Below, piece by piece: positions 47,320 to 64,000 of a stretch of DNA of 64,000 nucleotides (its first letter is position 1; each line of letters begins with the position of its first letter). This stretch comes from an uncultured virus (IMG/VR IMGVR_UViG_3300001589_005208). Lineage: Duplodnaviria; Heunggongvirae; Uroviricota; Caudoviricetes. The notes under the pieces are model-generated. The model worked only from the letters and a program-made list of their open reading frames with translations. It did not search any database and was not told the DNA's origin. A program made the translations under genes and the position numbers. The stretch lies in the IMG/VR virus record IMGVR_UViG_3300001589_005208; one strand, 5' to 3'.

Positions 47320-47502
47320 ATGGCAAATCAAATTCACGAACAAATCGTAGCAGCCTATGAAGCATACTTAAAAGAGCATGCCGCTTGGGAAGACAAAGGT
47401 GTTAAAGCCGCAGCCGCTCGAGCAAGAAAGTCACTAGGCGACATTGGTAAACTTACCAAATCAAGACGTGCTGAGATCCAAGAAAAGAAAAACAGTATGT
47501 AA
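47320..47502 (+). CDS. Histone H1-like / Hc1-like small basic protein
   Basis: KGVKAAAARARKSLGDIGKLTKSRRAEIQEKKN; strong AGGAG SD. Confidence 0.7.
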   Translation: MANQIHEQIVAAYEAYLKEHAAWEDKGVKAAAARARKSLGDIGKLTKSRRAEIQEKKNSM

Positions 47503-48830
47503 TGATTTCAATATCGAGATTACAAAACGATATTGAAATACATGATTGCACTAACGAACGTATCTACAGTAAAGATGAGCTAACTTGTCTTGCTGGAGGA
47601 TATCAGTGTTTCTTTGAGAGTCAAAAACTTAAAAGAGGCGATCGTATTTCATTGTGTCTGCAAGAAGACATACATCATTTAGCAGTAGTGTTTGCTTCTA
47701 TTGACTACGGACTTGTTCCTGTTATTAGCGGCGATCACTACATTGATGACGAGTACTGTGCAAGGAGCAATATTAAAATTGTTTTAACTCGTGGAATACA
47801 ACCTGTAATTGTAGAAACTGTTAATGTTCCTCATATTGAATTAGATGGCAATATTAAACCATCAAAACTTTATCGTGTTAACCACAATGATATTATACTA
47901 GAATCGTTTACTAGTGGTACAACAGGGCATTCTAAAACAGTAAAACATACACACGAAAGTATTACTTGTGCTTCAAACGATAGTATCAAGCACTACTGGA
48001 AAGAAGCAAAAGTAAGTTGGTTTTATCATAATATTGTACACTTAGGTGTTAGTACTGTGTATTTCTTTCCTGCGTTATTTTCTAGTAAAAAGGTCGTTTT
48101 GCCTCAGTTATGGGACACATATGACGTTGATACATTTAATAAACACAAGCCTGATACAATGCTATTGTTTCCGTCAAATTACGAGCAGTATGAAAATTTA
48201 AGCAAGTTAGATTTAAGTCATGTTAAGTATGTACTTACTGGCGGCTCAACGATTCCAAAAACATTTTGTGAAAAACTAATTAAACAAGGTGTTAGTGACG
48301 TTGTTGTAATATACGGGCTAACAGAATGTTTGCCTCCTATTATGCACAAGTTTATAAACAAACAAAATATTGCTGACTACAATCAACAAGATATGGGCGT
48401 AAACTGTGATGATACTGCCGAGTATAAAATTGATAGGCACGGTGAATTAGTGATTGTTAAAAGTAAACATTTAGCAACCCAAATCAATGATTCTAATGTG
48501 GATACATTAAATACAGGTGACCGTGTAAACACGGTTGGAAACAATTATTATTTTGAAAAACGTAATAAAGATTTTATAAGGATTAACGGAGAGTTAGTTA
48601 ATCCACAACAACTTGTTGACGAAAGTCAAGCAACAAAACTTGTGTTGTTTGGTACTTCTCAGACACATGTTGTAGTCTGTGTGAATGATGATTCAGTGAA
48701 TACTGATAGTTTGATCCAGAAATTAACAGGCCAGGGTATCAGTTATGATAAACTAATAGTACCCATAGAGCTTAATGTATTAGGAAAACCTGATATAGGA
48801 AAATTAAGGCACAAGTATGTTTCAAATTAA
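47502..48830 (+). CDS. Adenylate-forming (AMP-binding, ANL superfamily) enzyme
   Basis: FTSGTTGHSK (A3), TGGS, YGLTE (A5), NTGD (A7), R.KD.I.INGE.V.P (A8) and N.LGK.D (A10). Confidence 0.85.
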   Translation: MISISRLQNDIEIHDCTNERIYSKDELTCLAGGYQCFFESQKLKRGDRISLCLQEDIHHLAVVFASIDYGLVPVISGDHYIDDEYCARSNIKIVLTRGIQPVIVETVNVPHIELDGNIKPSKLYRVNHNDIILESFTSGTTGHSKTVKHTHESITCASNDSIKHYWKEAKVSWFYHNIVHLGVSTVYFFPALFSSKKVVLPQLWDTYDVDTFNKHKPDTMLLFPSNYEQYENLSKLDLSHVKYVLTGGSTIPKTFCEKLIKQGVSDVVVIYGLTECLPPIMHKFINKQNIADYNQQDMGVNCDDTAEYKIDRHGELVIVKSKHLATQINDSNVDTLNTGDRVNTVGNNYYFEKRNKDFIRINGELVNPQQLVDESQATKLVLFGTSQTHVVVCVNDDSVNTDSLIQKLTGQGISYDKLIVPIELNVLGKPDIGKLRHKYVSN

Positions 48831-49035
48831 AGCTCATCTTAACGAAGCTCGTAAAGGATACTTCCAGCATGGTAAGTTTGCTGTTGTGGCAGGCTTCGAT
48901 CTTATACTCACAGGTATAGTTAGTATTATACATGGTATACTTCCTAACGTTTTACCATTTTATGCAGAGAAAAAGGTTGACTATTACCACAAGAAGGCAT
49001 TACAATTACAGCAGTTAAGAAAACAAAAGAAATGA
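48817..49035 (+). CDS. Small hydrophobic hypothetical protein
   Basis: HL......YFQH..FA ... IIHG.LP pattern; operon position. Confidence 0.6.
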   Translation: MFQIKAHLNEARKGYFQHGKFAVVAGFDLILTGIVSIIHGILPNVLPFYAEKKVDYYHKKALQLQQLRKQKK

Positions 49036-49472
49036 GTTGGACTTACAAGGGTGATCCTATTGAGCAGTTACCAAGTGACATTGAAGGATTTGTTTACTTA
49101 ATAACCAACTTAAAAAGCAACAAAAAATACATTGGCAAAAAATTAGCAAAATTTAAAAAAACAAAACCACCTCTTAAAGGTAAGAAAAACAAAAGACGAA
49201 CCACAGTAGAAAGTGATTGGAGAGAATATTATGGATCTTCAGATCACTTACAGGCAGATGTAGCAGAGCTAGGCAGCAAGAACTTCACACGTGAAATACT
49301 TTATCTTTGTTCAAGTAGGGGCTTAATGAGTTACCTTGAAGCAAAGGAGCAGTTTGAAAGAGAAGTTCTTTTATCAGATGATTACTATAATGGCATTATA
49401 AACGTTCGCGTAGGCAGTAGCAAAATTCTCCACGAAGGCATTCAACAGTTCAAGAACAATCAACAATTATAG
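49032..49472 (+). CDS. Minimal GIY-YIG family nuclease-like protein (Seg-like)
   Basis: GFVYLITN....KYIGKK, ESDWREYYGSS, F.REIL, YLE..EQ and YYN. Confidence 0.8.
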   Translation: MSWTYKGDPIEQLPSDIEGFVYLITNLKSNKKYIGKKLAKFKKTKPPLKGKKNKRRTTVESDWREYYGSSDHLQADVAELGSKNFTREILYLCSSRGLMSYLEAKEQFEREVLLSDDYYNGIINVRVGSSKILHEGIQQFKNNQQL

Positions 49473-49489
49473 TTACAGTACTTAAGGTT

Positions 49490-49850
49490 AGCGGGCCAGT
49501 TTAAATTACCGCTGTGGAAAAAGTTTCCGTATAGGAACACACGCAACATACAGATCAACACACCAGAGTGTGGAAGCCATCAAACAAATTGGGCTCACCG
49601 GTTAGTATAGATTGAATTACTGTCAATCAAAAAACACAATATAGTTTGTAAAAACCCATGGCAACAGGAACGAAGCGTGGGGTAACATAGCAATATGTAT
49701 GTCGACGTAGGTTGGGTAAGGTCAGAGCCCATCAAACTTGTGTATAAAGAATACCTACTTCCAAGTCTCGGCTGGGTAATACTCGCATGAAGTCAAGATT
49801 AGATGGAACCCTTAAACAGGTTCCGTCTGACTGAAACGATCTGCATGAAG
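49490..49850 (+). ncRNA. Candidate large structured non-coding RNA (about 360 nt, pseudoknotted), family unassigned
   Basis: Lies in the longest ORF-free gap (49473-49956). At least eight complementary helices, including two crossing long-range ones, a GCAA tetraloop, and G-U pairs that favour the plus strand. Confidence 0.65.
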
Positions 49851-49852
49851 AC

Positions 49853-49880
49853 TTTAGTTATATAATCATTTAGTTATATA
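49853..49880. repeat. 12-bp direct repeat TTTAGTTATATA x2
   Basis: Copies at 49853-49864 and 49869-49880, followed by an AT-only run. Confidence 0.6.
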
Positions 49881-49897
49881 TTATTAATTAAGAAAAA

Positions 49898-49943
49898 AGC
49901 AATGAGTTTGAAAAACGAAATTGCTGATGAACTTTAGTTCATC
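49898..49943. terminator. Hairpins between convergent transcription units (terminator candidates)
   Basis: AGCAAT/ATTGCT (49898-49925) and GATGAAC-ttta-GTTCATC (49926-49943). Confidence 0.4.
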
Positions 49944-49956
49944 TTATAGTGTGATG

Positions 49957-50145
49957 CTATAGTAATGGCATTCCGCTTTTCTCTGTGTTCTTGATGTTTT
50001 CCGCAACGATATCGTAGACAATCTTCTGCTCTTTCTGATTGAGCATGAATGCCTGGTCCAGATTAATGCCACCACGCATATACCAAACTATCTTAAATAT
50101 ATTTTCTCTAATAGTGTCGGCTTCTGTGTCAAACTGCTTTAGCAT
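49957..50145 (-). CDS. gp51-like / tail-assembly-chaperone second ORF, probably reached by a -1 frameshift
   Basis: WYMRGG motif; the frame is open upstream to the slippery site at 50187-50193; no SD before the ATG. Confidence 0.65.
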   Translation of the reverse strand: MLKQFDTEADTIRENIFKIVWYMRGGINLDQAFMLNQKEQKIVYDIVAENIKNTEKSGMPLL

Positions 50146-50180: not shown

Positions 50181-51044
50181 TTATGCGAAAAAATTTGAAT
50201 TGTCAAATACTATAGGTGTTTTATACTTTGTGTCACAACCTTCATTTTCGCAAGTTAATTCAAACTCTGCAAAACTGTTATTGATTCTTTCATTATCAAG
50301 ATGTTTTTGAATATTGTCAAACATCTTTCTATCAACTCCATGTACGAACTCATTGATGTGTGTAGGATTTGTTACTTCGGTACCATCAGCAGTAGTAATT
50401 TTATAAATTGTTTTAGCAATTAAGTCAACAGTGTGTACTGTGAGTTTTAAGAACGTATCGTTAAATAAATCTTGTTTTTGCTCATCAGTTGTTGTTTCAT
50501 CATTGACAATTCTCATAATTTTTGCTTCTTCAAATTGTCTTAGATTTTCAGTGTTCAAGTCTTTATATGATAACGGTTTAAATGTAATTGTTAAATCATT
50601 AATTTTTAACGTATTATTGAACACCCATTTGCCACTTTGATCAATTAAGTTTGCTAAGTCAATACCAAACTCATTTTGTGATTGACAAGTAGGGCAAGTA
50701 GCGGTAATATCCATTTGATTACCGTATGTTGCAATACGAATAGCAATTAATATAACATCCATATCTAAACTTGGTATGGACCACGGGTCTTTAATAGAAG
50801 GTACACAACTCTTAATAACTTCAACGGTACTGCTTCCGTTAAGTAGTGCATCTGGAGTTTTAAAGACTAACTCGTCTTTTGCAGTCATTGGAAATACACC
50901 TATCTCGCCATTTTGTGGAAGATCTAAGGCACCATGTGCATAGTAGTTTCCTTTGCTGGGTAGAGATACATATACTTCGGGTTTACGAAAATACCCGGTT
51001 AAGGGATTTTGATCCTGTTTTAAAGGATTCGCGTTTTCATCCAT
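50181..51044 (-). CDS. gp26: Baseplate hub assembly chaperone (gp26-like)
   Basis: LPSKG..Y, PMTAKDE, D.D.ILIAIR.ATYG, CPTC and C....C; ends NFFA; adjacent to the tape measure gene. Confidence 0.7.
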   Translation of the reverse strand: MDENANPLKQDQNPLTGYFRKPEVYVSLPSKGNYYAHGALDLPQNGEIGVFPMTAKDELVFKTPDALLNGSSTVEVIKSCVPSIKDPWSIPSLDMDVILIAIRIATYGNQMDITATCPTCQSQNEFGIDLANLIDQSGKWVFNNTLKINDLTITFKPLSYKDLNTENLRQFEEAKIMRIVNDETTTDEQKQDLFNDTFLKLTVHTVDLIAKTIYKITTADGTEVTNPTHINEFVHGVDRKMFDNIQKHLDNERINNSFAEFELTCENEGCDTKYKTPIVFDNSNFFA

Positions 51045-51104: not shown

Positions 51105-53435
51105 ATGGCAGTTACAGTAGACATAGACGGTGGTAGAGTAGAAATCAGTGACGTAGCAACTGAGAAAACACTTGAACGATTAGTTAACTTAATGGAAAAA
51201 AGTGCAACTAACAAAGATCCTAGCAAAGCTGCAGAATTAAAAGCTCGTGTGGCAACCACACAACAATTGACAAAAGGAGTAGTCAAGTTAAAAGGACTAG
51301 CAAGTGCTGGTTCAGATGCCACTGATGCATTAGAAGATGCAGCCAAAAGTGCAAACACATTTGCAGCCAGAGGCAAAAAAATGCTGGACGCAGTACTTGG
51401 TGCTGGTAAAGGATTAATACAGTTTGGTGGAGAAGTTGCCGGAACTGGCATGAATATGAAGTCACTAGGTGACGCAGTAGACAAAAATGCTAGTCACTTT
51501 GGTGCTTTAGGTGCCGTTTTTGGTGCAGCCGCAGGTGCTATAGTAGGACACAGTGCAAACTTAATTGACACATTTGATGGATTAAGTTCAACCGGTGCAA
51601 CATTTACAAATAACTTATTTGATCTTGAAAGAGTAGCGGCTAACAGTTATTTGTCATTAGAACAAATGACAGGTATGTTACGACAAAACAGTGAAAGTTT
51701 AGCAGTATTTGGTGGTAGTGCAAGATTAGGTGCAAAACGTTTTACTGAAATGAATCGTGTTGTACAAGACACTTATCGTACAGACTTTGCTATGTTGGGT
51801 ATTAAGGCTAGTGAAAGTGCAGAACTGTTAGCACAGTTCACTGCAATGCAAGCCAGAAACACACAGTTTGCAACAATGGGTGTGCAACAACAAGCACAAG
51901 CCGGAGCCAATTTTGTAAAAGAAATACAAATGATGGCAAACTTAACTGGACAAGATCGTAAACAACTTGCTAGTAAAATGGCAAACGATAAACGTAGAGC
52001 AGATGTTGAACTACAATTGAGTCGTATGACTGGTGAAGCATCCAAAGGTGCCAGAGCTGCATTTGCAACAATGGGTACACAGTTTGGTGAAAGCTCGCCA
52101 ATAATGGACGCACTAAGAACTAGTTTCTTAGGATTACCGGCAGCGGCAACTACTGCTGGAAACATGTTACTACAAGACGGTAATATGGGTCCTGTTATTG
52201 CAAAGATTACTGCCGGGTTAAAAGATGGCACAGTGAGTATGACTGACATCCAAAAAGAATTAGCCGGAGTTAGTACTAAGTTTATCGATGCAAATAAAGG
52301 AATGGAAGGCATTGCACAATATAGTGAAATTGCAATGGCGTTTACAGAAGTATCGGCTGCATTATTAAATGCACAAAAGCAAAGATTAGTAGTTGAAAAA
52401 GATTTTAACGGAGACTATGACAAGTTTGTTGCAGCTCAAAAAACACAACTAGACGAAAATAGTAAGAACATGAAGAATGTTGACTTNCTATCACAAGAAA
52501 TTGGTAAAACTGTAAGATTAGGTTTTAATAGTGTAACAGAGTCAGCAGTAGGCGTTATGTCAGATGGTGTTAAAGCCTTAAAAACTCTTGTTGCTGGTAT
52601 GCCAACATCAATGGACGAATTTAGTACTGCACTTGGAGATGCTAGTAAGCCAGCATCAGCAACAGGTGCCGCTATGGGATTGCAAAAAGGACTTGCGTCA
52701 GCAAAAAATCAGTTGGGTTTTTTTAAAAAAGCATTAGAAAGTATAGGAATTGGTGGTGGTGCTTCAGCAACTACTAAAGGAACAAGTTCTATTGCAGAAG
52801 GTGTAATAAAAGGAGCCACAGAATCAGACAAGGTAGCAAAAGCAGCCGGCCAATCAACTACTATGCTTAGTAAAGCATCTGGATTGTTAGGCAAGATTCT
52901 TCCAAGAATTCCTATTATAGGTTCAGCACTTTCGGGTGGTGTAACATATGCAACAAGTGAGCAAGAAACACAAGTTGGTAAACTCAGTGAAGGTATTGGT
53001 TCAGGACTTGGATCATTTGGCGGTGCAGCCGGCGGAGCGGCAACAGGTGCATTAATAGGAAGTGCAGTTCCAATTATTGGAACTTTAATTGGTGGAATAA
53101 TAGGCGGTATTGCTGGCGGTATTGGCGGAGATATGCTTGGTAAATCTGTAGGAGGTAAGTTAGCAAACTTCTTTGGATTTGCAGATGGCGGAATTGTTAC
53201 ACAACCAGTTTACAATGCTGCAATCGGTGAAAAACCAGGAACACAAGAAGGTGTTTTTCCTTTACCTGCAAACTTTGACAAAGAGACAGCCTTTGACAGA
53301 AGCGGTGAGAAAGCAATGGCTCAAGCGGCACAACAGATAGCAAAAGCAGTAACTAACTTTGATAACTCTGAAATGTTACAAGAGATGAGAAAATTTAATA
53401 AAAATATTAAAGTAGTCGGAGATAGACTAGCATAA
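51105..53435 (+). CDS. Tape-measure-like protein
   Basis: 776 aa, A/G-rich and helical, with C-terminal glycine zippers and FADGGIVT.P....IGE.PG.QE.V.PL. Confidence 0.7.
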   Translation: MAVTVDIDGGRVEISDVATEKTLERLVNLMEKSATNKDPSKAAELKARVATTQQLTKGVVKLKGLASAGSDATDALEDAAKSANTFAARGKKMLDAVLGAGKGLIQFGGEVAGTGMNMKSLGDAVDKNASHFGALGAVFGAAAGAIVGHSANLIDTFDGLSSTGATFTNNLFDLERVAANSYLSLEQMTGMLRQNSESLAVFGGSARLGAKRFTEMNRVVQDTYRTDFAMLGIKASESAELLAQFTAMQARNTQFATMGVQQQAQAGANFVKEIQMMANLTGQDRKQLASKMANDKRRADVELQLSRMTGEASKGARAAFATMGTQFGESSPIMDALRTSFLGLPAAATTAGNMLLQDGNMGPVIAKITAGLKDGTVSMTDIQKELAGVSTKFIDANKGMEGIAQYSEIAMAFTEVSAALLNAQKQRLVVEKDFNGDYDKFVAAQKTQLDENSKNMKNVDXLSQEIGKTVRLGFNSVTESAVGVMSDGVKALKTLVAGMPTSMDEFSTALGDASKPASATGAAMGLQKGLASAKNQLGFFKKALESIGIGGGASATTKGTSSIAEGVIKGATESDKVAKAAGQSTTMLSKASGLLGKILPRIPIIGSALSGGVTYATSEQETQVGKLSEGIGSGLGSFGGAAGGAATGALIGSAVPIIGTLIGGIIGGIAGGIGGDMLGKSVGGKLANFFGFADGGIVTQPVYNAAIGEKPGTQEGVFPLPANFDKETAFDRSGEKAMAQAAQQIAKAVTNFDNSEMLQEMRKFNKNIKVVGDRLA

Positions 53436-61625: not shown

Positions 61626-64000
61626 ATGGCAATAGGAAGAATTTCTGGTGCTATGCTCAAGAATAATCTTGAGAGATTAGGCACAGATCTATCATTTGAA
61701 ACAGATTTATTATACCTCGACGTAGCAAACAGTCGAATAGGTATAGGAACATCAACCCCCACAACAACATTACAAGCAGATAATGTAACGATTAGCGGAT
61801 CTGCAATTAGAAGTGTAGCCGGTGACTTAGACTTAGGTACAGACGCAACTAATATTACTATTGGCGGCGGAAGTGCAGACTATGTTTTAACCACCGATGG
61901 CTCGGGTAATTTAACTTGGAATTCGTTAGGTAATTTAGCATCAGGCGGTGGTGGCGGTCTGACAGGAATGGATGTTAGTTTATCTACACCCTCAGATTCA
62001 AGTTTAACACAATACGGTGCAATTAATAGTTGGACTACGGCAACTAAAGTTACTAATTCAATTGACGATTTAAATGAACTATCTCGTAACGTTATTAATA
62101 ATACAGCAGTAATAGACGCAGACTTTACAGGAAGTCCTTTAACTGGTGGTGCTGGTATGAACGTTACTCTTAGTATTAGTTCAGATGGTAACGCCAATCA
62201 GTATGTAATTGATTGGGGAGATGGAACATCTAATACAACAACTTCGTCTACTACTCCTAGTCACGTTTATGCAACTAACACCGGAAGCCCTTTTACAGTT
62301 ACGGTTACGGCAAGTAACACCAGCGGTGAAGGTGCAGGAAGTTCATCACAAAAGGCAAGAACAAGTTATGTTACAATCTATACTGCTGACCCAGTAGTTA
62401 GTTTTGCAGCCTATGCCGCGGTAAGTGGCGGAAGTCCAATTACATATTGGGACGATGGTGCTACAGTATATTTTCAAAACAATACAACAAATACAACTGG
62501 AGCAACTGTTCAGTATACATACGCATGGGGCGACGGTTCAAGCGATAACGTTGTTACATCAGACAGTGATGCAGGTGGCGTAACAGGAACACGATTAGCA
62601 CATACATTTGCTACAAGCACAGAAACAGAAGTAAGTAGAACAGTTGAATTAACACTTGATTCTCATAGTACTGCGTTACCGAGTGCAGTACCGACTGACG
62701 ATTCAGAAGTTGTAAAAATATATGATGATCACACACCAACAGTAGGATTAAGCGTCACAACAGGAATTAACGAAAGTGCAACCAGTGGCTTACCGGTTAC
62801 GTTTACAAACAATACAGAAAATACAATAGGCAACTATAGTACATACGGAATTCAATATGTGTATACATGGGGCGATGGCACAACACAAACAGTAAACACA
62901 GGAAATAATGGTAGTGGCGATACAGGGCAAACAATAAGTCACACTTATATACTAAGTGGTTCAGATCAAGCAAGTGGAACACCGCAAGATTATACAGGTA
63001 ACTTGCGTGTTACTAGTAACCATACAAGTAGTCCGTTTATAAGCACAAACTTTACAGTACATGTTGAGCCTGATGTAAGAGCAAACATCAGCGGAACTGC
63101 TAACAGAATTAGTGACAGAAGCGGTGACAATCAATATGACGTATATGATGGTGTAACTTATGACGGTGTAAATCATGCATTGGTTACAGTTACTAATACA
63201 ACACAAAATGCAGATGACTATGTTTATAACTGGAATGATGGCAGTTCAAACGATACAGTGACTGAAGACGGTTCAAGTGCTGGATCAATTGGGGCAACAT
63301 TAGGACACGATTTTACTGGAGTAAGCACAGGAAACAAAACATTAAACTTTACTGCAAACGGAACACCAGATATTTCAGCACAAACAGATACTGATAGTTT
63401 AGTATTTCAAGTTAATGCAGTACCGTCTGCTCCAAACGGATTAAGTGCAGAAAGTTTAACATTACAAGATAGTTATCAAGGAACAAGTCCAAAACTAGCA
63501 CACGGCTTTACGGATAATAGTGCAACCAATCCACTAAGTGCAGGAGCAAGTCTAACAACAACTACTGCTAGAAGGTATACAAGTGGAACAATAGATACTA
63601 ACAATGTTACTAACGTATATGATGGAACTGCAGGTACACTTACTGCAACTATAAACGGTGCAGATGCTGGTAATAGAACATTTAGTACCGCACTTAATCA
63701 GACAGGTACAACAGGTGCTCTTATAGTTTCAGATCAAAGAGATGCACACGATACAATTAGTAGTTCAACATACCCAACAGGTTTTTATCAAACATTTGAT
63801 GCAAAGATTACACAAGCAACAGGTAGTTATAGTGCCGGTGTAAACGATCAAAGACTTGAACACACAACAACAGGAAACACAAATTATGTATCTGTTATTA
63901 TTGATAGTGTAACTAGTACACCAACAGTTGATTTAAGTGGAGCAACACTTACAGAAGGATCAGTTACATATAATTATATTTCGGGTATTCCTTATTACAG
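61626..64000 (+). CDS. Large virion protein with PKD-like repeats (truncated by the window end; not in the ORF track)
   Basis: Starts MAIGRISGAMLKNNLER...RIGIGTSTP. In-frame WGDG/WDDG/WNDG motifs at 62214, 62448, 62526, 62868 and 63231; no stop seen. Confidence 0.8.
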   Translation, partial: MAIGRISGAMLKNNLERLGTDLSFETDLLYLDVANSRIGIGTSTPTTTLQADNVTISGSAIRSVAGDLDLGTDATNITIGGGSADYVLTTDGSGNLTWNSLGNLASGGGGGLTGMDVSLSTPSDSSLTQYGAINSWTTATKVTNSIDDLNELSRNVINNTAVIDADFTGSPLTGGAGMNVTLSISSDGNANQYVIDWGDGTSNTTTSSTTPSHVYATNTGSPFTVTVTASNTSGEGAGSSSQKARTSYVTIYTADPVVSFAAYAAVSGGSPITYWDDGATVYFQNNTTNTTGATVQYTYAWGDGSSDNVVTSDSDAGGVTGTRLAHTFATSTETEVSRTVELTLDSHSTALPSAVPTDDSEVVKIYDDHTPTVGLSVTTGINESATSGLPVTFTNNTENTIGNYSTYGIQYVYTWGDGTTQTVNTGNNGSGDTGQTISHTYILSGSDQASGTPQDYTGNLRVTSNHTSSPFISTNFTVHVEPDVRANISGTANRISDRSGDNQYDVYDGVTYDGVNHALVTVTNTTQNADDYVYNWNDGSSNDTVTEDGSSAGSIGATLGHDFTGVSTGNKTLNFTANGTPDISAQTDTDSLVFQVNAVPSAPNGLSAESLTLQDSYQGTSPKLAHGFTDNSATNPLSAGASLTTTTARRYTSGTIDTNNVTNVYDGTAGTLTATINGADAGNRTFSTALNQTGTTGALIVSDQRDAHDTISSSTYPTGFYQTFDAKITQATGSYSAGVNDQRLEHTTTGNTNYVSVIIDSVTSTPTVDLSGATLTEGSVTYNYISGIPYY

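Follow-up and report, generated by a model that had tools for sequence, protein, structure and literature searches.

Few RNAs are both large and intricately folded, with pseudoknots and invariant loops, and past examples of such RNAs, among them ribozymes, guide RNAs and cage-forming RNAs, have led to new biochemistry. Group I introns are organized around a P3-P7 pseudoknot, with P4-P6 lying inside P3 and P8 placed between P3' and P7'. The omega-RNAs of HEARO/IscB and TnpB are structured RNAs of a few hundred nucleotides that lie next to a small nuclease gene and carry a variable short word at the RNA 3' end. Some regulatory RNAs, among them ones that stem from 3' untranslated regions, combine repeated seed motifs with a terminator, and the RNA II pre-primer of ColE1, a long transcript, is folded and has AT-rich DNA and conserved hairpins behind it. 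Ssn is a single-domain GIY-YIG nuclease that is reported to bind a hairpin adjoining its own gene and to cut a few nucleotides upstream, on single-stranded DNA only (PMC11893778). The same paper assigns Ssn to the cd10448 family and describes the NTS as a dispersed repeat of ~20-30 nt that acts as single-stranded DNA, with no Ssn activity on RNA (PMC11893778). Polynucleobacter-1 (RF01718), finally, is an orphan motif of 141 nt with 16 representatives, one of them in RefSeq (Weinberg et al., 2010, PMC2864571).

A conserved structured RNA behind a GIY-YIG gene

The stretch of phage DNA analysed here, called the window, is 64,000 nt long. Its gap at 49473-49956 (484 nt) is, as the preliminary description had stated, the longest internal stretch without ORFs of at least 50 aa on both strands; only 63207-64000, the cut window end, exceeds it in ORF-free length. 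We show here that 49475-49850 (+) is a conserved structured RNA of ~375 nt, large and pseudoknotted, which starts 2 nt after the stop codon of a GIY-YIG gene:

49032..49472, + strand: GIY-YIG gene (SegE_GIY-YIG), 146 aa, single domain (Pfam PF19835, E 4.3e-36)
49475..49850, + strand: structured RNA, consisting of a body and a 3' twin-repeat module (nhmmer profile, covariation)

An nhmmer profile of 376 positions gave 157 matches in 199 fetched loci, and sequence conservation stops at ~49850. The RNA was found in at least 119 stretches and is widespread in uncultured marine T4-like phages; the window and G001 hold one copy each. The fold was examined in an alignment of 80 non-redundant homologues with 77 proposed pairs. 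There, 88.5% of the cells are paired, compared to 34-42% when the pairs are slid, and compensatory change is seen at 53 of the 77 pairs, a value reached by none of 500 shuffles. This covariation among homologous loci bears out the earlier proposal of a large, structured and pseudoknotted phage RNA. Single sequences fold only modestly better than their shuffled counterparts (z -2.34 for the + and -2.00 for the - strand). A conserved open frame is lacking in the RNA region: the longest stop-free runs on the + strand have a median of 45.5 codons, and those on the - strand are longer (median 77 codons), but their start and end columns and their frames vary among homologues. Three-base periodicity is not marked (entropy 0.62, 0.72, 0.68).

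Rfam 15 gave no match in the gap, either at gathering over the window or, for 49300-50100, with E values of up to 10, and no family assignment for the window; weak snoRNA-like rows fall outside the element and are noise. ARAGORN found no tRNA or tmRNA gene in the window, and the Rfam tmRNA models were likewise without match. The gap and a consensus-like homologue had no blastn match in 50,697 GenBank phage records. When bacterial and archaeal genomes were scanned with the core pattern, one of 120 stretches contained a true element, in a T4-like contig that binning had placed in a Crocinitomicaceae MAG, and the remainder were chance matches. We found no account of this RNA in the literature, although pieces may stand anonymously in a published csRNA catalogue (Fremin et al., 2023, PMC10690425).

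The PF19835 match spans residues 3-123 of the 146-aa protein, which is thus a bare catalytic domain. The gene also matches PHROG 447 and homing-endonuclease PHROGs, and at least 597 relatives of the nuclease were counted among the 600 IMG/VR stretches listed. Among 79 loci found by the RNA motif, the GIY-YIG gene lies directly upstream on the same strand in 73, while four of the remaining six are cut by contig ends and two belong to another phage type. In no T4-like contig was the RNA observed with the nuclease gene missing, which leaves room for a functional tie. The RNA also occurs without the gene: five contigs of the other phage type carry it, and the sequence around it, over up to 3 kb, has no GIY-YIG homologue. 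In L127, the one locus of this type read in detail, a sigma-70-like promoter lies upstream of the RNA and the downstream genes share its direction. Conversely, the gene can lack the RNA. Of 74 close gene homologues, about 60 carry an RNA with the twin-repeat module and 14 do not; in the cultured phage Melnitz the gene is present at the same length (72.5% identity) and the RNA is absent. The genes upstream differ between loci, and in relatives the RNA lies beside baseplate genes. The locus in the window is a convergent junction, at which a + strand unit ends facing - strand genes. Contig ends lie near the element at scattered positions; they are therefore not genome termini. A consensus scan of the window for promoters and terminators gave nothing distinctive.

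Fold and twin heptamers

The following features make up the RNA and its downstream neighbourhood:

49475..49480, + strand: 5' strand of pseudoknot PK-A, pairing with 49618-49623 in the loop of hairpin H7 (6 pairs, 5 compensatory, 97.7% paired)
49489..49514, + strand: hairpin H2 (49489-94/49509-14, 99.6% paired) with a conserved GGCC-containing loop
49515..49541, + strand: H3 (49515-16/49540-41, 98.1% paired, 2 of 2 pairs compensatory), enclosing H4
49523-28/49534-38, + strand: hairpin H4, with one bulge (5 of 5 pairs compensatory)
49548..49608, + strand: long-range helix H5 (49548-54/49602-08, 96.3% paired, 4 pairs compensatory)
49610..49628, + strand: hairpin H7 (49610-14/49624-28, 99% paired, 5 of 5 pairs compensatory), whose loop forms PK-A
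49635..49648, + strand: 5' strands of H8b (49635-38 with 49739-42, 94% paired) and H8 (49643-48 with 49733-38, 89.8% paired, 6 of 6 pairs compensatory)
49655..49681, + strand: hairpin H9, with GGAACGAAGCG in its conserved loop (profile pairs 180:204 and 181:203 covary)
49685..49698, + strand: H10, a stem of variable length (expansion segment, 8-83 nt in homologues)
49707..49758, + strand: H11 (49707-12/49753-58, 99.8% paired), enclosing H12 and the 3' strands of H8/H8b
49713-16/49728-31, + strand: hairpin H12 (TGGG/CCCA, 97.8% paired, 2 compensatory pairs), with an invariant loop
49785..49791, + strand: repeat R1, heptamer GCATGAA after CTC, same as R2 in 105 of 107 homologues
49801..49828, + strand: hairpin H13 between R1 and R2 (10 pairs, 96.4% paired, 3 compensatory)
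49843..49849, + strand: repeat R2, heptamer GCATGAA after TCT, same as R1 in 105 of 107 homologues
49899..49924, no strand assigned: second conserved hairpin, with a GCAAT/ATTGC stem and a purine-rich loop

The local helices drawn in the preliminary description largely stand. AGCGG/CCGCT corresponds to H2 (four of six pairs compensatory), TTCC/GGAA to H4, which reads best with one bulged T, GATTGA/TCAATC to H7 and AGATGGAACC/GGTTCCGTCT to H13, and the long-range pairing GTAGGT/ACCTAC to H11 (one pair compensatory). CACAC/GTGTG (49559-63/49568-72) shows compensatory change as well; it is part of a peripheral domain enclosed by H5 that is replaced in many homologues and takes at least three alternative forms. 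CCCATG/CGTGGG (H9) covaries in the nhmmer alignment and folds in 78 of 78 homologues, while it is misaligned in A2 (62% paired). For ACATA-GCAA-TATGT (H10) a stem of at least 4 bp was found in 61 of 78, but the GNRA loop is not conserved. This loop and the G-U pairs had been used to place the fold on the + strand. The G-U pairs agree with this: they are frequent in the alignment (columns 18:44, UG in 79 sequences; 89:186, GU in 72; 488:512, UG in 51), hence the fold lies on the + strand.

A different fate met the proposed long-range helices TGGGCTC+ACC/GGT+GAGCCCA, TGGAA/TTCCA and AGCC/GGCT. All three were rejected for lack of covariation, their observed values being reached by 31-309 of 500 shuffles, and the first of them competes with the local hairpin H12, which has compensatory changes. 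The RNA is pseudoknotted as proposed, but the two supported pseudoknots are formed by helices other than those drawn, namely by PK-A and by H8/H8b (49635-48 with 49733-42), which cross H11. Two further pairings were dropped, that of AGATT with GATCT, which is not conserved, and that of the H12 loop with GUCUGAC, where changes are one-sided only. The ~300-nt body of the RNA packs into a compact core that contains two or more pseudoknots, and the 3' module follows.

The twin GCATGAAG repeat is the most unusual feature of this RNA. It had been noted before as a direct repeat, and the homologues confirm it, since both copies change together: R1 equals R2 in 78 of 80 non-redundant and in 105 of 107 unique homologues, with at least nine heptamer types, and divergent classes add more (AGATAAT, GGTGAAG, GCATGAT, TCGTGAT, ACAGAAA). 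Two heptamers that are held identical and yet change together are under an unusual constraint, which implies sequence-directed recognition. The changes include transversions that no fixed wobble partner could tolerate, and the heptamers lie outside every supported helix. Common to all classes seen is a 3' module of ACUC-heptamer, hairpin, UGAC, AAUCU and the same heptamer again. Within a few nucleotides after R2, 49 of 78 loci have a hairpin with a T-rich tail; the window itself has no such terminator hairpin directly after R2. Farther downstream, 38-95 nt past R2, a hairpin with a covarying stem and a GAGYG..ARCGA loop is present in 64 of 76 loci. The loop of the window's hairpin at 49899-49924 is a variant and stands outside the 64 loci counted. 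An AT-rich spacer and a purine-rich-loop hairpin downstream of R2 are also found in the other phage type.

The search for a partner of the heptamers covered the element, its flanks and whole contigs. Neither a reverse complement nor a third copy stands at a fixed place within 1-3 kb, no internal column covaries with the heptamers, and no internal complement exists in 11 representatives. Complements of a locus' own heptamer type show no enrichment within the element or on either side of it. Within the 64-kb window the complement of the repeat 8-mer is absent, the 8-mer itself occurs only at R1 and R2, and 7-mer and 8-mer counts are at chance level, with none at a gene start. Scanning the gene starts of six contigs of 39-145 kb (CheckV 11-40% complete) gave no shared complementary target. 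Pairing with a tRNA anticodon loop and a box C/D-like reading were dropped by inspection: 79 of 80 sequences have a C at the second heptamer position, and CUGA motifs are lacking in other classes.

Transcription of the RNA is plausible, as contigs from four metatranscriptomes of four studies span gene and RNA. Their depth is ~8 over the RNA compared to ~7 and ~3.5 over the neighbouring genes, figures that come from contigs only and may include DNA carry-over. One of these contigs ends at 49852, 2 nt after R2, and the next starts 11 nt earlier, with depth falling from 8.05 to 3.55 between the two. Contigs cannot give ends, strand or level, and the stop at 49852 is only a hint.

Relation to Polynucleobacter-1 and other described systems

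The RF01718 5' domain was detected in four of the 26 related loci scanned (L056, L071, L080 and L037, 59-108 bits). In these loci the motif takes the place of the window's 5' domain directly after a homologous GIY-YIG gene, and it is followed by the same module of ACUC-heptamer, hairpin and AAUCU-heptamer as in the window RNA. The first RF01718 hairpin, whose loop begins with GGCC, resembles H2, by eye only, and the conserved core H8-H12 is absent from the RF01718 loci. This shows that the motif from 2010 covers just the 5' third of a larger RNA, one that is linked to the gene of a phage nuclease; Polynucleobacter-1 thereby gains a genomic context and a 3' partner module. For the window RNA itself RF01718 gave no match, be it at gathering (37 bits) or, over 49300-50100, with E values of up to 10. 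The earlier statement that the family cannot be assigned therefore stands for the window, but not for the relatives that share its 3' module.

With a group I core the locus shares a large RNA with crossing long-range helices, beside a GIY-YIG gene, in a T4-like phage. However, the P3/P7-like crossing order that had been pointed out is unsupported, because it was based on a long-range helix lacking covariation, and the supported topology differs: hairpin H12 sits between the H11 5' and H8 3' strands, and none is found between H8 3' and H11 3', the position of P8. No host gene is interrupted, as the RNA begins just past a stop codon and in relatives ends before a terminator, and Rfam Intron_gpI gave no match at E up to 10. 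The resemblance to omega-RNAs lies in the size of the structured RNA, its place next to a small nuclease gene and the variable short word at its 3' end. In contrast to these, the nuclease is of the GIY-YIG type, the variable word occurs twice and matches no flanking DNA, and the linkage is not obligate in either direction, with five contigs having the RNA without the gene and Melnitz and 14 of 74 loci the gene without the RNA. Rfam HEARO had no match in the window.

As in seed regulatory RNAs, a short single-stranded word occurs more than once and at an mRNA 3' end; in 49 of 78 loci a terminator-like hairpin comes directly after it, whereas the window has none directly after R2. The element differs from them in the ~300-nt pseudoknotted body that precedes the module, and no target was found in the flanks, the window or the six contigs. 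The ColE1 RNA II pre-primer is likewise a long folded transcript with AT-rich DNA and conserved hairpins behind it, but here no skew inflection and no hybrid-forming G-rich stretch was identified, and the pseudoknots and twin heptamers have no counterpart in RNA II. The likeness to the Ssn-NTS pair is a single-domain GIY-YIG protein beside a hairpin element with fixed flanking words. The window protein, however, is of the SegE type (PF19835), by annotation a different family from cd10448, and the window element is one copy of a 375-nt fold whose repeat 8-mer is confined to R1 and R2 in 64 kb.

Possible functions of the RNA

We tentatively favour an autonomous non-coding RNA gene of marine phages whose twin heptamers would base-pair in trans, an explanation to which we give somewhat less than an even chance. 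The RNA would be transcribed on the + strand behind the small gene of homing-endonuclease type, and its single-stranded heptamers may serve as twin pairing sites, seeds or guides, for one complement elsewhere in phage or host. The role of the structured body would be to stabilise the RNA, to form a catalytic centre or to offer proteins a platform, and the nuclease gene may be a selfish neighbour that settled beside a conserved RNA gene. The compensatory changes at 53 of 77 pairs, the identity of the twin heptamers in 105 of 107 homologues and their accessibility outside helices are in line with this, as are the metatranscriptome contigs that span gene and RNA. Seed-plus-terminator regulatory RNAs have the same layout as R2 with the hairpin and T-rich tail in 49 of 78 loci. 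RNA without nuclease in five contigs, and nuclease without RNA in Melnitz and 14 of 74 loci, point to a gene of its own, although in T4-like contigs the RNA has only been seen with the nuclease gene or cut by contig ends. A complementary partner was not found in the 1-3 kb flanks, the 64-kb window or the six contigs, the ~300-nt pseudoknotted body far exceeds the needs of a seed carrier, and contig depth over the RNA is little above that of neighbouring genes.

A bolder proposal, unlikely but not to be neglected, is that marine phages have a new RNA machine in which the heptamers serve as programmable elements of recognition, either a two-site ribozyme or a targeting subunit for the GIY-YIG domain. 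If the latter were true, this would be the first RNA-guided GIY-YIG nuclease, and if the RNA-machine reading holds, the machine would have interchangeable bodies, of which Polynucleobacter-1 is one.

Rather unlikely, in our view, is a cis-acting origin or primer RNA similar to ColE1 RNA II, in which the transcript would hybridise with its own template DNA, the AT-rich spacer and downstream hairpins would serve unwinding or priming, and the twin heptamers would allow two annealing registers. It would account for the spacer and purine-rich-loop hairpin found behind R2 in 64 of 76 loci, as well as in the other phage type, and the T4 origin ori(uvsY) lies beside genes 25/26, just as the RNA adjoins baseplate genes in relatives. 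However, cumulative GC skew gives no origin signal at the RNA locus and turns at ~44 kb, transcription units converge at the locus, in 49 of 78 loci R2 is separated from the downstream motifs by a terminator-like hairpin, and hybrid formation needs no pseudoknots.

We give little credence to the RNA being a partner of the GIY-YIG nuclease, that is, a specificity guide, inhibitor or regulator in an RNA-protein complex. Five contigs with the RNA and no GIY-YIG gene within up to 3 kb, the gene without RNA in Melnitz and heptamers that match no flanking sequence speak against such a role. Still, the protein is a bare catalytic domain (residues 3-123 of 146) with the RNA 2 nt past its stop codon, the gene is directly upstream in 73 of 79 RNA loci, ~60 of 74 gene homologues have the twin-repeat module, and the module is retained even where RF01718 replaces the body. 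Equally doubtful is a self-processing ribozyme that would cut, or cut and rejoin, at the same position in both repeats and so free or remove a 58-nt hairpin segment. The pseudoknotted architecture with its invariant loops would suit catalysis, the two identical sites each follow a pyrimidine triplet (CUC, UCU), and the contig end 2 nt after R2, with the next contig starting 11 nt earlier and depth dropping from 8.05 to 3.55, could mark processing. Yet that contig passes R1 unbroken, the joint change of the heptamers needs an internal guide and none was found, and the Rfam ribozyme families gave no match.

Still less probable is a mere 3' untranslated structure with no function in trans, shielding the mRNA upstream of it and insulating the two convergent units. 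The position at the end of a + unit facing - strand genes, the hairpins that follow and a contig depth close to that of the upstream mRNA would fit; L127, in the other phage type, has its own promoter and co-directional downstream genes, and the strict heptamer identity and invariant loops would be left unexplained. That the element works at the level of single-stranded DNA, folding into a structure which the nuclease recognises or cuts, is very improbable: a hairpin with fixed flanking words beside a single-domain GIY-YIG gene recalls the account of Ssn (PMC11893778), but the protein is annotated as SegE type (PF19835) and Ssn as cd10448, the element is single-copy in 64 kb instead of dispersed, abundant G-U pairs and pseudoknots suit RNA better, and the RNA also occurs without the gene.

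One further hairpin lies at the convergent junction:

49926..49947, no strand assigned: hairpin GATGAAC/GTTCATC, then TTAT, between the convergent units

Judged by its sequence this is probably a two-way terminator. The consensus terminator scan did not call it, and similar hairpins are present in homologues.

Locus and conservation of the element

The window belongs to a T4-like marine phage; its genes include those for a gp46-type SMC/AAA nuclease subunit, a T4 baseplate protein and a gp29-like tail protein. Its GIY-YIG nuclease gene has its closest cultured relatives in the OM43 phages Melnitz, family Kyanoviridae (72.5% amino-acid identity). The 484-nt gap that follows this gene was correctly singled out as the longest internal ORF-free stretch in the window, and lies between convergent units because the genes downstream run on the minus strand.

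49032-49472, plus strand: GIY-YIG gene, 146 aa, essentially a bare SegE-type domain (PF19835, E 4.3e-36, residues 3-123)
49957-50145 and 50181-51044, minus strand: next genes past the gap

An accessory island (47320-49035) separates the gp46-like gene from the nuclease gene and encodes a 60-aa Hc1 histone-H1-like protein, a 442-aa AMP-binding enzyme and a DUF6356 protein; in L002, L010 and similar relatives the nuclease gene is found directly 3' of Hc1. The 776-aa tail-protein ORF (51105-53435, plus strand) has one X in its translation, hence the window contains an ambiguous base.

With the nuclease protein as query, at least 597 relatives were found among 600 IMG/VR stretches, and the best 80 of these at least 597 were retained. 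The DNA 3' of the stop codon is 70-98% conserved over query positions 1-377 (window 49473-49849) and divergent beyond, which agrees with the borders proposed in the preliminary description. A protein-independent scan with the core motif of the element added at least 119 further stretches, and a 376-position profile gave 157 matches in 199 loci. From these we see that the element is a real conserved feature. For the alignment used below (A2), 107 full-length copies were reduced to 80 (<96% identity) and aligned together with the window.

Rfam 15 has no family for the element; the sole Rfam family detected in the window is freshwater-2 RNA (RF02980; 59345-59415, plus strand; 54.4 bits vs a gathering score of 49.9). 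No copy occurs in 50,697 GenBank phage records, and we found no description of this RNA in the literature. Fragments may be present in a 2023 catalogue that lists 8,495 short IMG/VR candidate RNAs of 29-151 nt (PMC10690425). Neither the core nor the pseudoknots nor the twin-heptamer rule has been described before.

A conserved plus-strand fold with two pseudoknots

In A2, 77 pairs in 15 helices are paired in 88.5% of cells, and in 34-42% when the 3' partners are slid by 1-3 columns. Both sides change in 53 of the 77 pairs, and none of 500 column shuffles matches any of five measures. The same pairs emerged from an independent mutual-information scan of the nhmmer alignment.

49475-80/49618-23, plus strand: PK-A, supported helix
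49489-94/49509-14, plus strand: H2, supported helix
49515-16/49540-41, plus strand: H3, supported helix
49523-28/49534-38, plus strand: H4, supported helix
49548-54/49602-08, plus strand: H5, supported helix
49559-63/49568-72, plus strand: H6, supported helix
49610-14/49624-28, plus strand: H7, supported helix
49635-38/49739-42, plus strand: H8b, supported helix
49643-48/49733-38, plus strand: H8, supported helix
49655-60/49676-81, plus strand: H9, poorly aligned by MAFFT (62% paired), folds in 78/78 sequences
49685-89/49694-98, plus strand: H10, poorly aligned by MAFFT (35% paired)
49707-12/49753-58, plus strand: H11, supported helix
49713-16/49728-31, plus strand: H12, supported helix
49801-10/49819-28, plus strand: H13, supported helix

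PK-A crosses H7 and H8/H8b cross H11; therefore, the conserved fold contains two pseudoknots. Invariant or common G-U pairs place it on the plus strand. H10, a stem of 8-83 nt that forms at least 4 bp in 61/78 sequences, behaves as an expansion segment. Single-sequence folding against shuffles (z -2.34 on the plus strand, -2.00 on the minus strand) is weak evidence taken alone.

The preliminary description had proposed a pseudoknotted structured RNA, and covariation supports this with the two knots named here, although not with the long-range helices as drawn there. Its seven local hairpins and GTAGGT/ACCTAC are confirmed, with small register shifts. Its three long-range pairings show no covariation (31 to 309 of 500 shuffles are equal or better); they draw on a peripheral domain that is swapped for other sequence in many homologues, and one competes with the covariation-supported H12. 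Since these pairings are unsupported, the likeness to the group I P3/P7 knot is lost.

A protein-coding reading was rejected: stop-free runs are short on the plus strand and longer on the minus strand, where frame and extent are not conserved, and three-base periodicity is not clear.

Twin heptamers and modular classes

Outside the helices lie two heptamers that are part of a universal 3' module.

49785-91, plus strand: R1, identical to R2 in the window, CTC just before
49843-49, plus strand: R2, identical to R1 in the window, TCT just before

The direct repeat noticed earlier is confirmed well beyond the window, with R1 equal to R2 in 78/80 A2 rows and in 105/107 unique profile matches; the two exceptions carry a single mismatch each. 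The heptamers co-vary through ACATGAA, ACATGAT, ACATAAT, ACGTGAA, ACAGGAA, GCATGAA, GCATAAA, ACATAAA, GTATGAA and ACATGAG, while distant classes repeat AGATAAT, GGTGAAG, GCATGAT, GCATAAT, TCGTGAT, TCATGAT and ACAGAAA, and one locus (L119) repeats a 10-mer. The flanks differ in a fixed manner, which speaks against a recent duplication. That the two copies stay identical yet vary freely, transversions included, points to pairing of both copies with one common strand, or to one copy being made from the other. No partner was found inside the element, within 1-3 kb of it, in the 64-kb window, or at gene starts in six contigs (39-145 kb, only 11-40% complete by CheckV). For contigs G001-G006 (43-145 kb), CheckV completeness of only 11-40% would put genome size near 350 kb, well above that of the 141-kb Melnitz phages, and this size may be an estimation artefact.

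A hairpin with a T-rich tail follows R2 within a few nt in 49/78 relatives; the window itself has none directly after R2. AT-rich DNA comes next, then a second, conserved hairpin (co-varying stem of 5-6 bp; purine-rich loop, GAGYG..ARCGA), 38-95 nt past R2 in 64/76 loci. A similar purine-rich motif occurs 3' of the RNA in another (non-T4) phage type.

49899-49924: window version of the second hairpin, variant loop, not counted in the 64
49926-43, where minus and plus units converge: last hairpin, which probably ends both units

In the AT-rich spacer just past R2 (49853-49881), a 12-nt direct repeat, TTTAGTTATATA, has two copies 16 nt apart and was met only in the window and its closest relatives.

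The 5' half of the RNA is modular. A "short" class has everything before H8 replaced, and the domain enclosed by H5 takes at least three forms. One superfamily class carries a known orphan Rfam motif, Polynucleobacter-1 (RF01718), reported in 2010 as a candidate of 141 nt without known function; of its 16 representatives, one came from RefSeq (PMC2864571). Full-length matches (59-108 bits vs a gathering score of 37) stand directly after the nuclease gene in four of 26 loci scanned, the four being in marine viral contigs; the window itself has none.

L056:1465-1611; L071:3460-3602; L080:3447-3580; L037:3492-3636: RF01718 matches

These four loci miss the H8-H12 core of the window but retain the 3' module (ACTC-heptamer, hairpin, TGAC, AATCT-heptamer); thus, the twin-repeat module unites the superfamily. 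Because this module comes next, RF01718 would seem to cover the 5' part of a longer RNA. At 49728-49732, contigs of two metatranscriptomes stop, and one of these goes on into H8 and linker sequence from another class, which suggests that RNA modules are shuffled within natural populations.

Relation to the nuclease gene and possible roles

Among the matches listed, the GIY-YIG gene is directly upstream on the same strand in 73/79 motif-scan loci; four others are cut by contig ends and two (L119, L127) have another context. Conversely, among the listed close gene homologues with at least 450 nt downstream, 41/74 have the profiled RNA, 19/74 a diverged RNA whose membership is inferred from the twin-repeat signature, and 14/74 none. 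Melnitz has the gene just 3' of its ribonucleotide reductase genes and does not have the RNA. In five contigs of another phage type, the RNA is present and no homologue of the nuclease, or of the genes next to it in the window, lies within up to 3 kb; a small-terminase-like gene stands downstream in these contigs, and upstream of the RNA in L127 are a small ORF and a sigma-70-like promoter. T4-like phages therefore show tight linkage of RNA and gene, yet the two can be separated, and in one lineage the RNA is independent of the gene.

Our tentative preference, held at a little under even chances, is that the RNA would be a gene of its own, separate from the nuclease gene, that both heptamers would base-pair in trans with one complementary sequence, and that the nuclease gene would be a selfish neighbour. 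We consider it unlikely that the RNA works in cis on the DNA that encodes it, as an origin or primer RNA would. Partnership with the nuclease seems quite improbable. The same low standing is given to self-processing at both repeats; in one run, one contig reaches 49852, its successor begins at 49841 and depth falls from 8.05 to 3.55, but contigs are blind to strand, ends and level, with DNA carry-over possible. A passive 3' structure is very unlikely, and an element that works as folded single-stranded DNA, as in Ssn/NTS (PMC11893778), is highly improbable.

Part of the stretch is found in 18 runs recorded as RNA, from several studies. Contigs from four metatranscriptomes (four studies) span nuclease gene and RNA at word depth 5-8, and they do not resolve strand, ends or level. 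A different, GC-richer non-coding stretch of ~300 nt 3' of a homologous GIY-YIG gene (L017:3427-3730), with neither twin-repeat signature nor Rfam match, may be another RNA.
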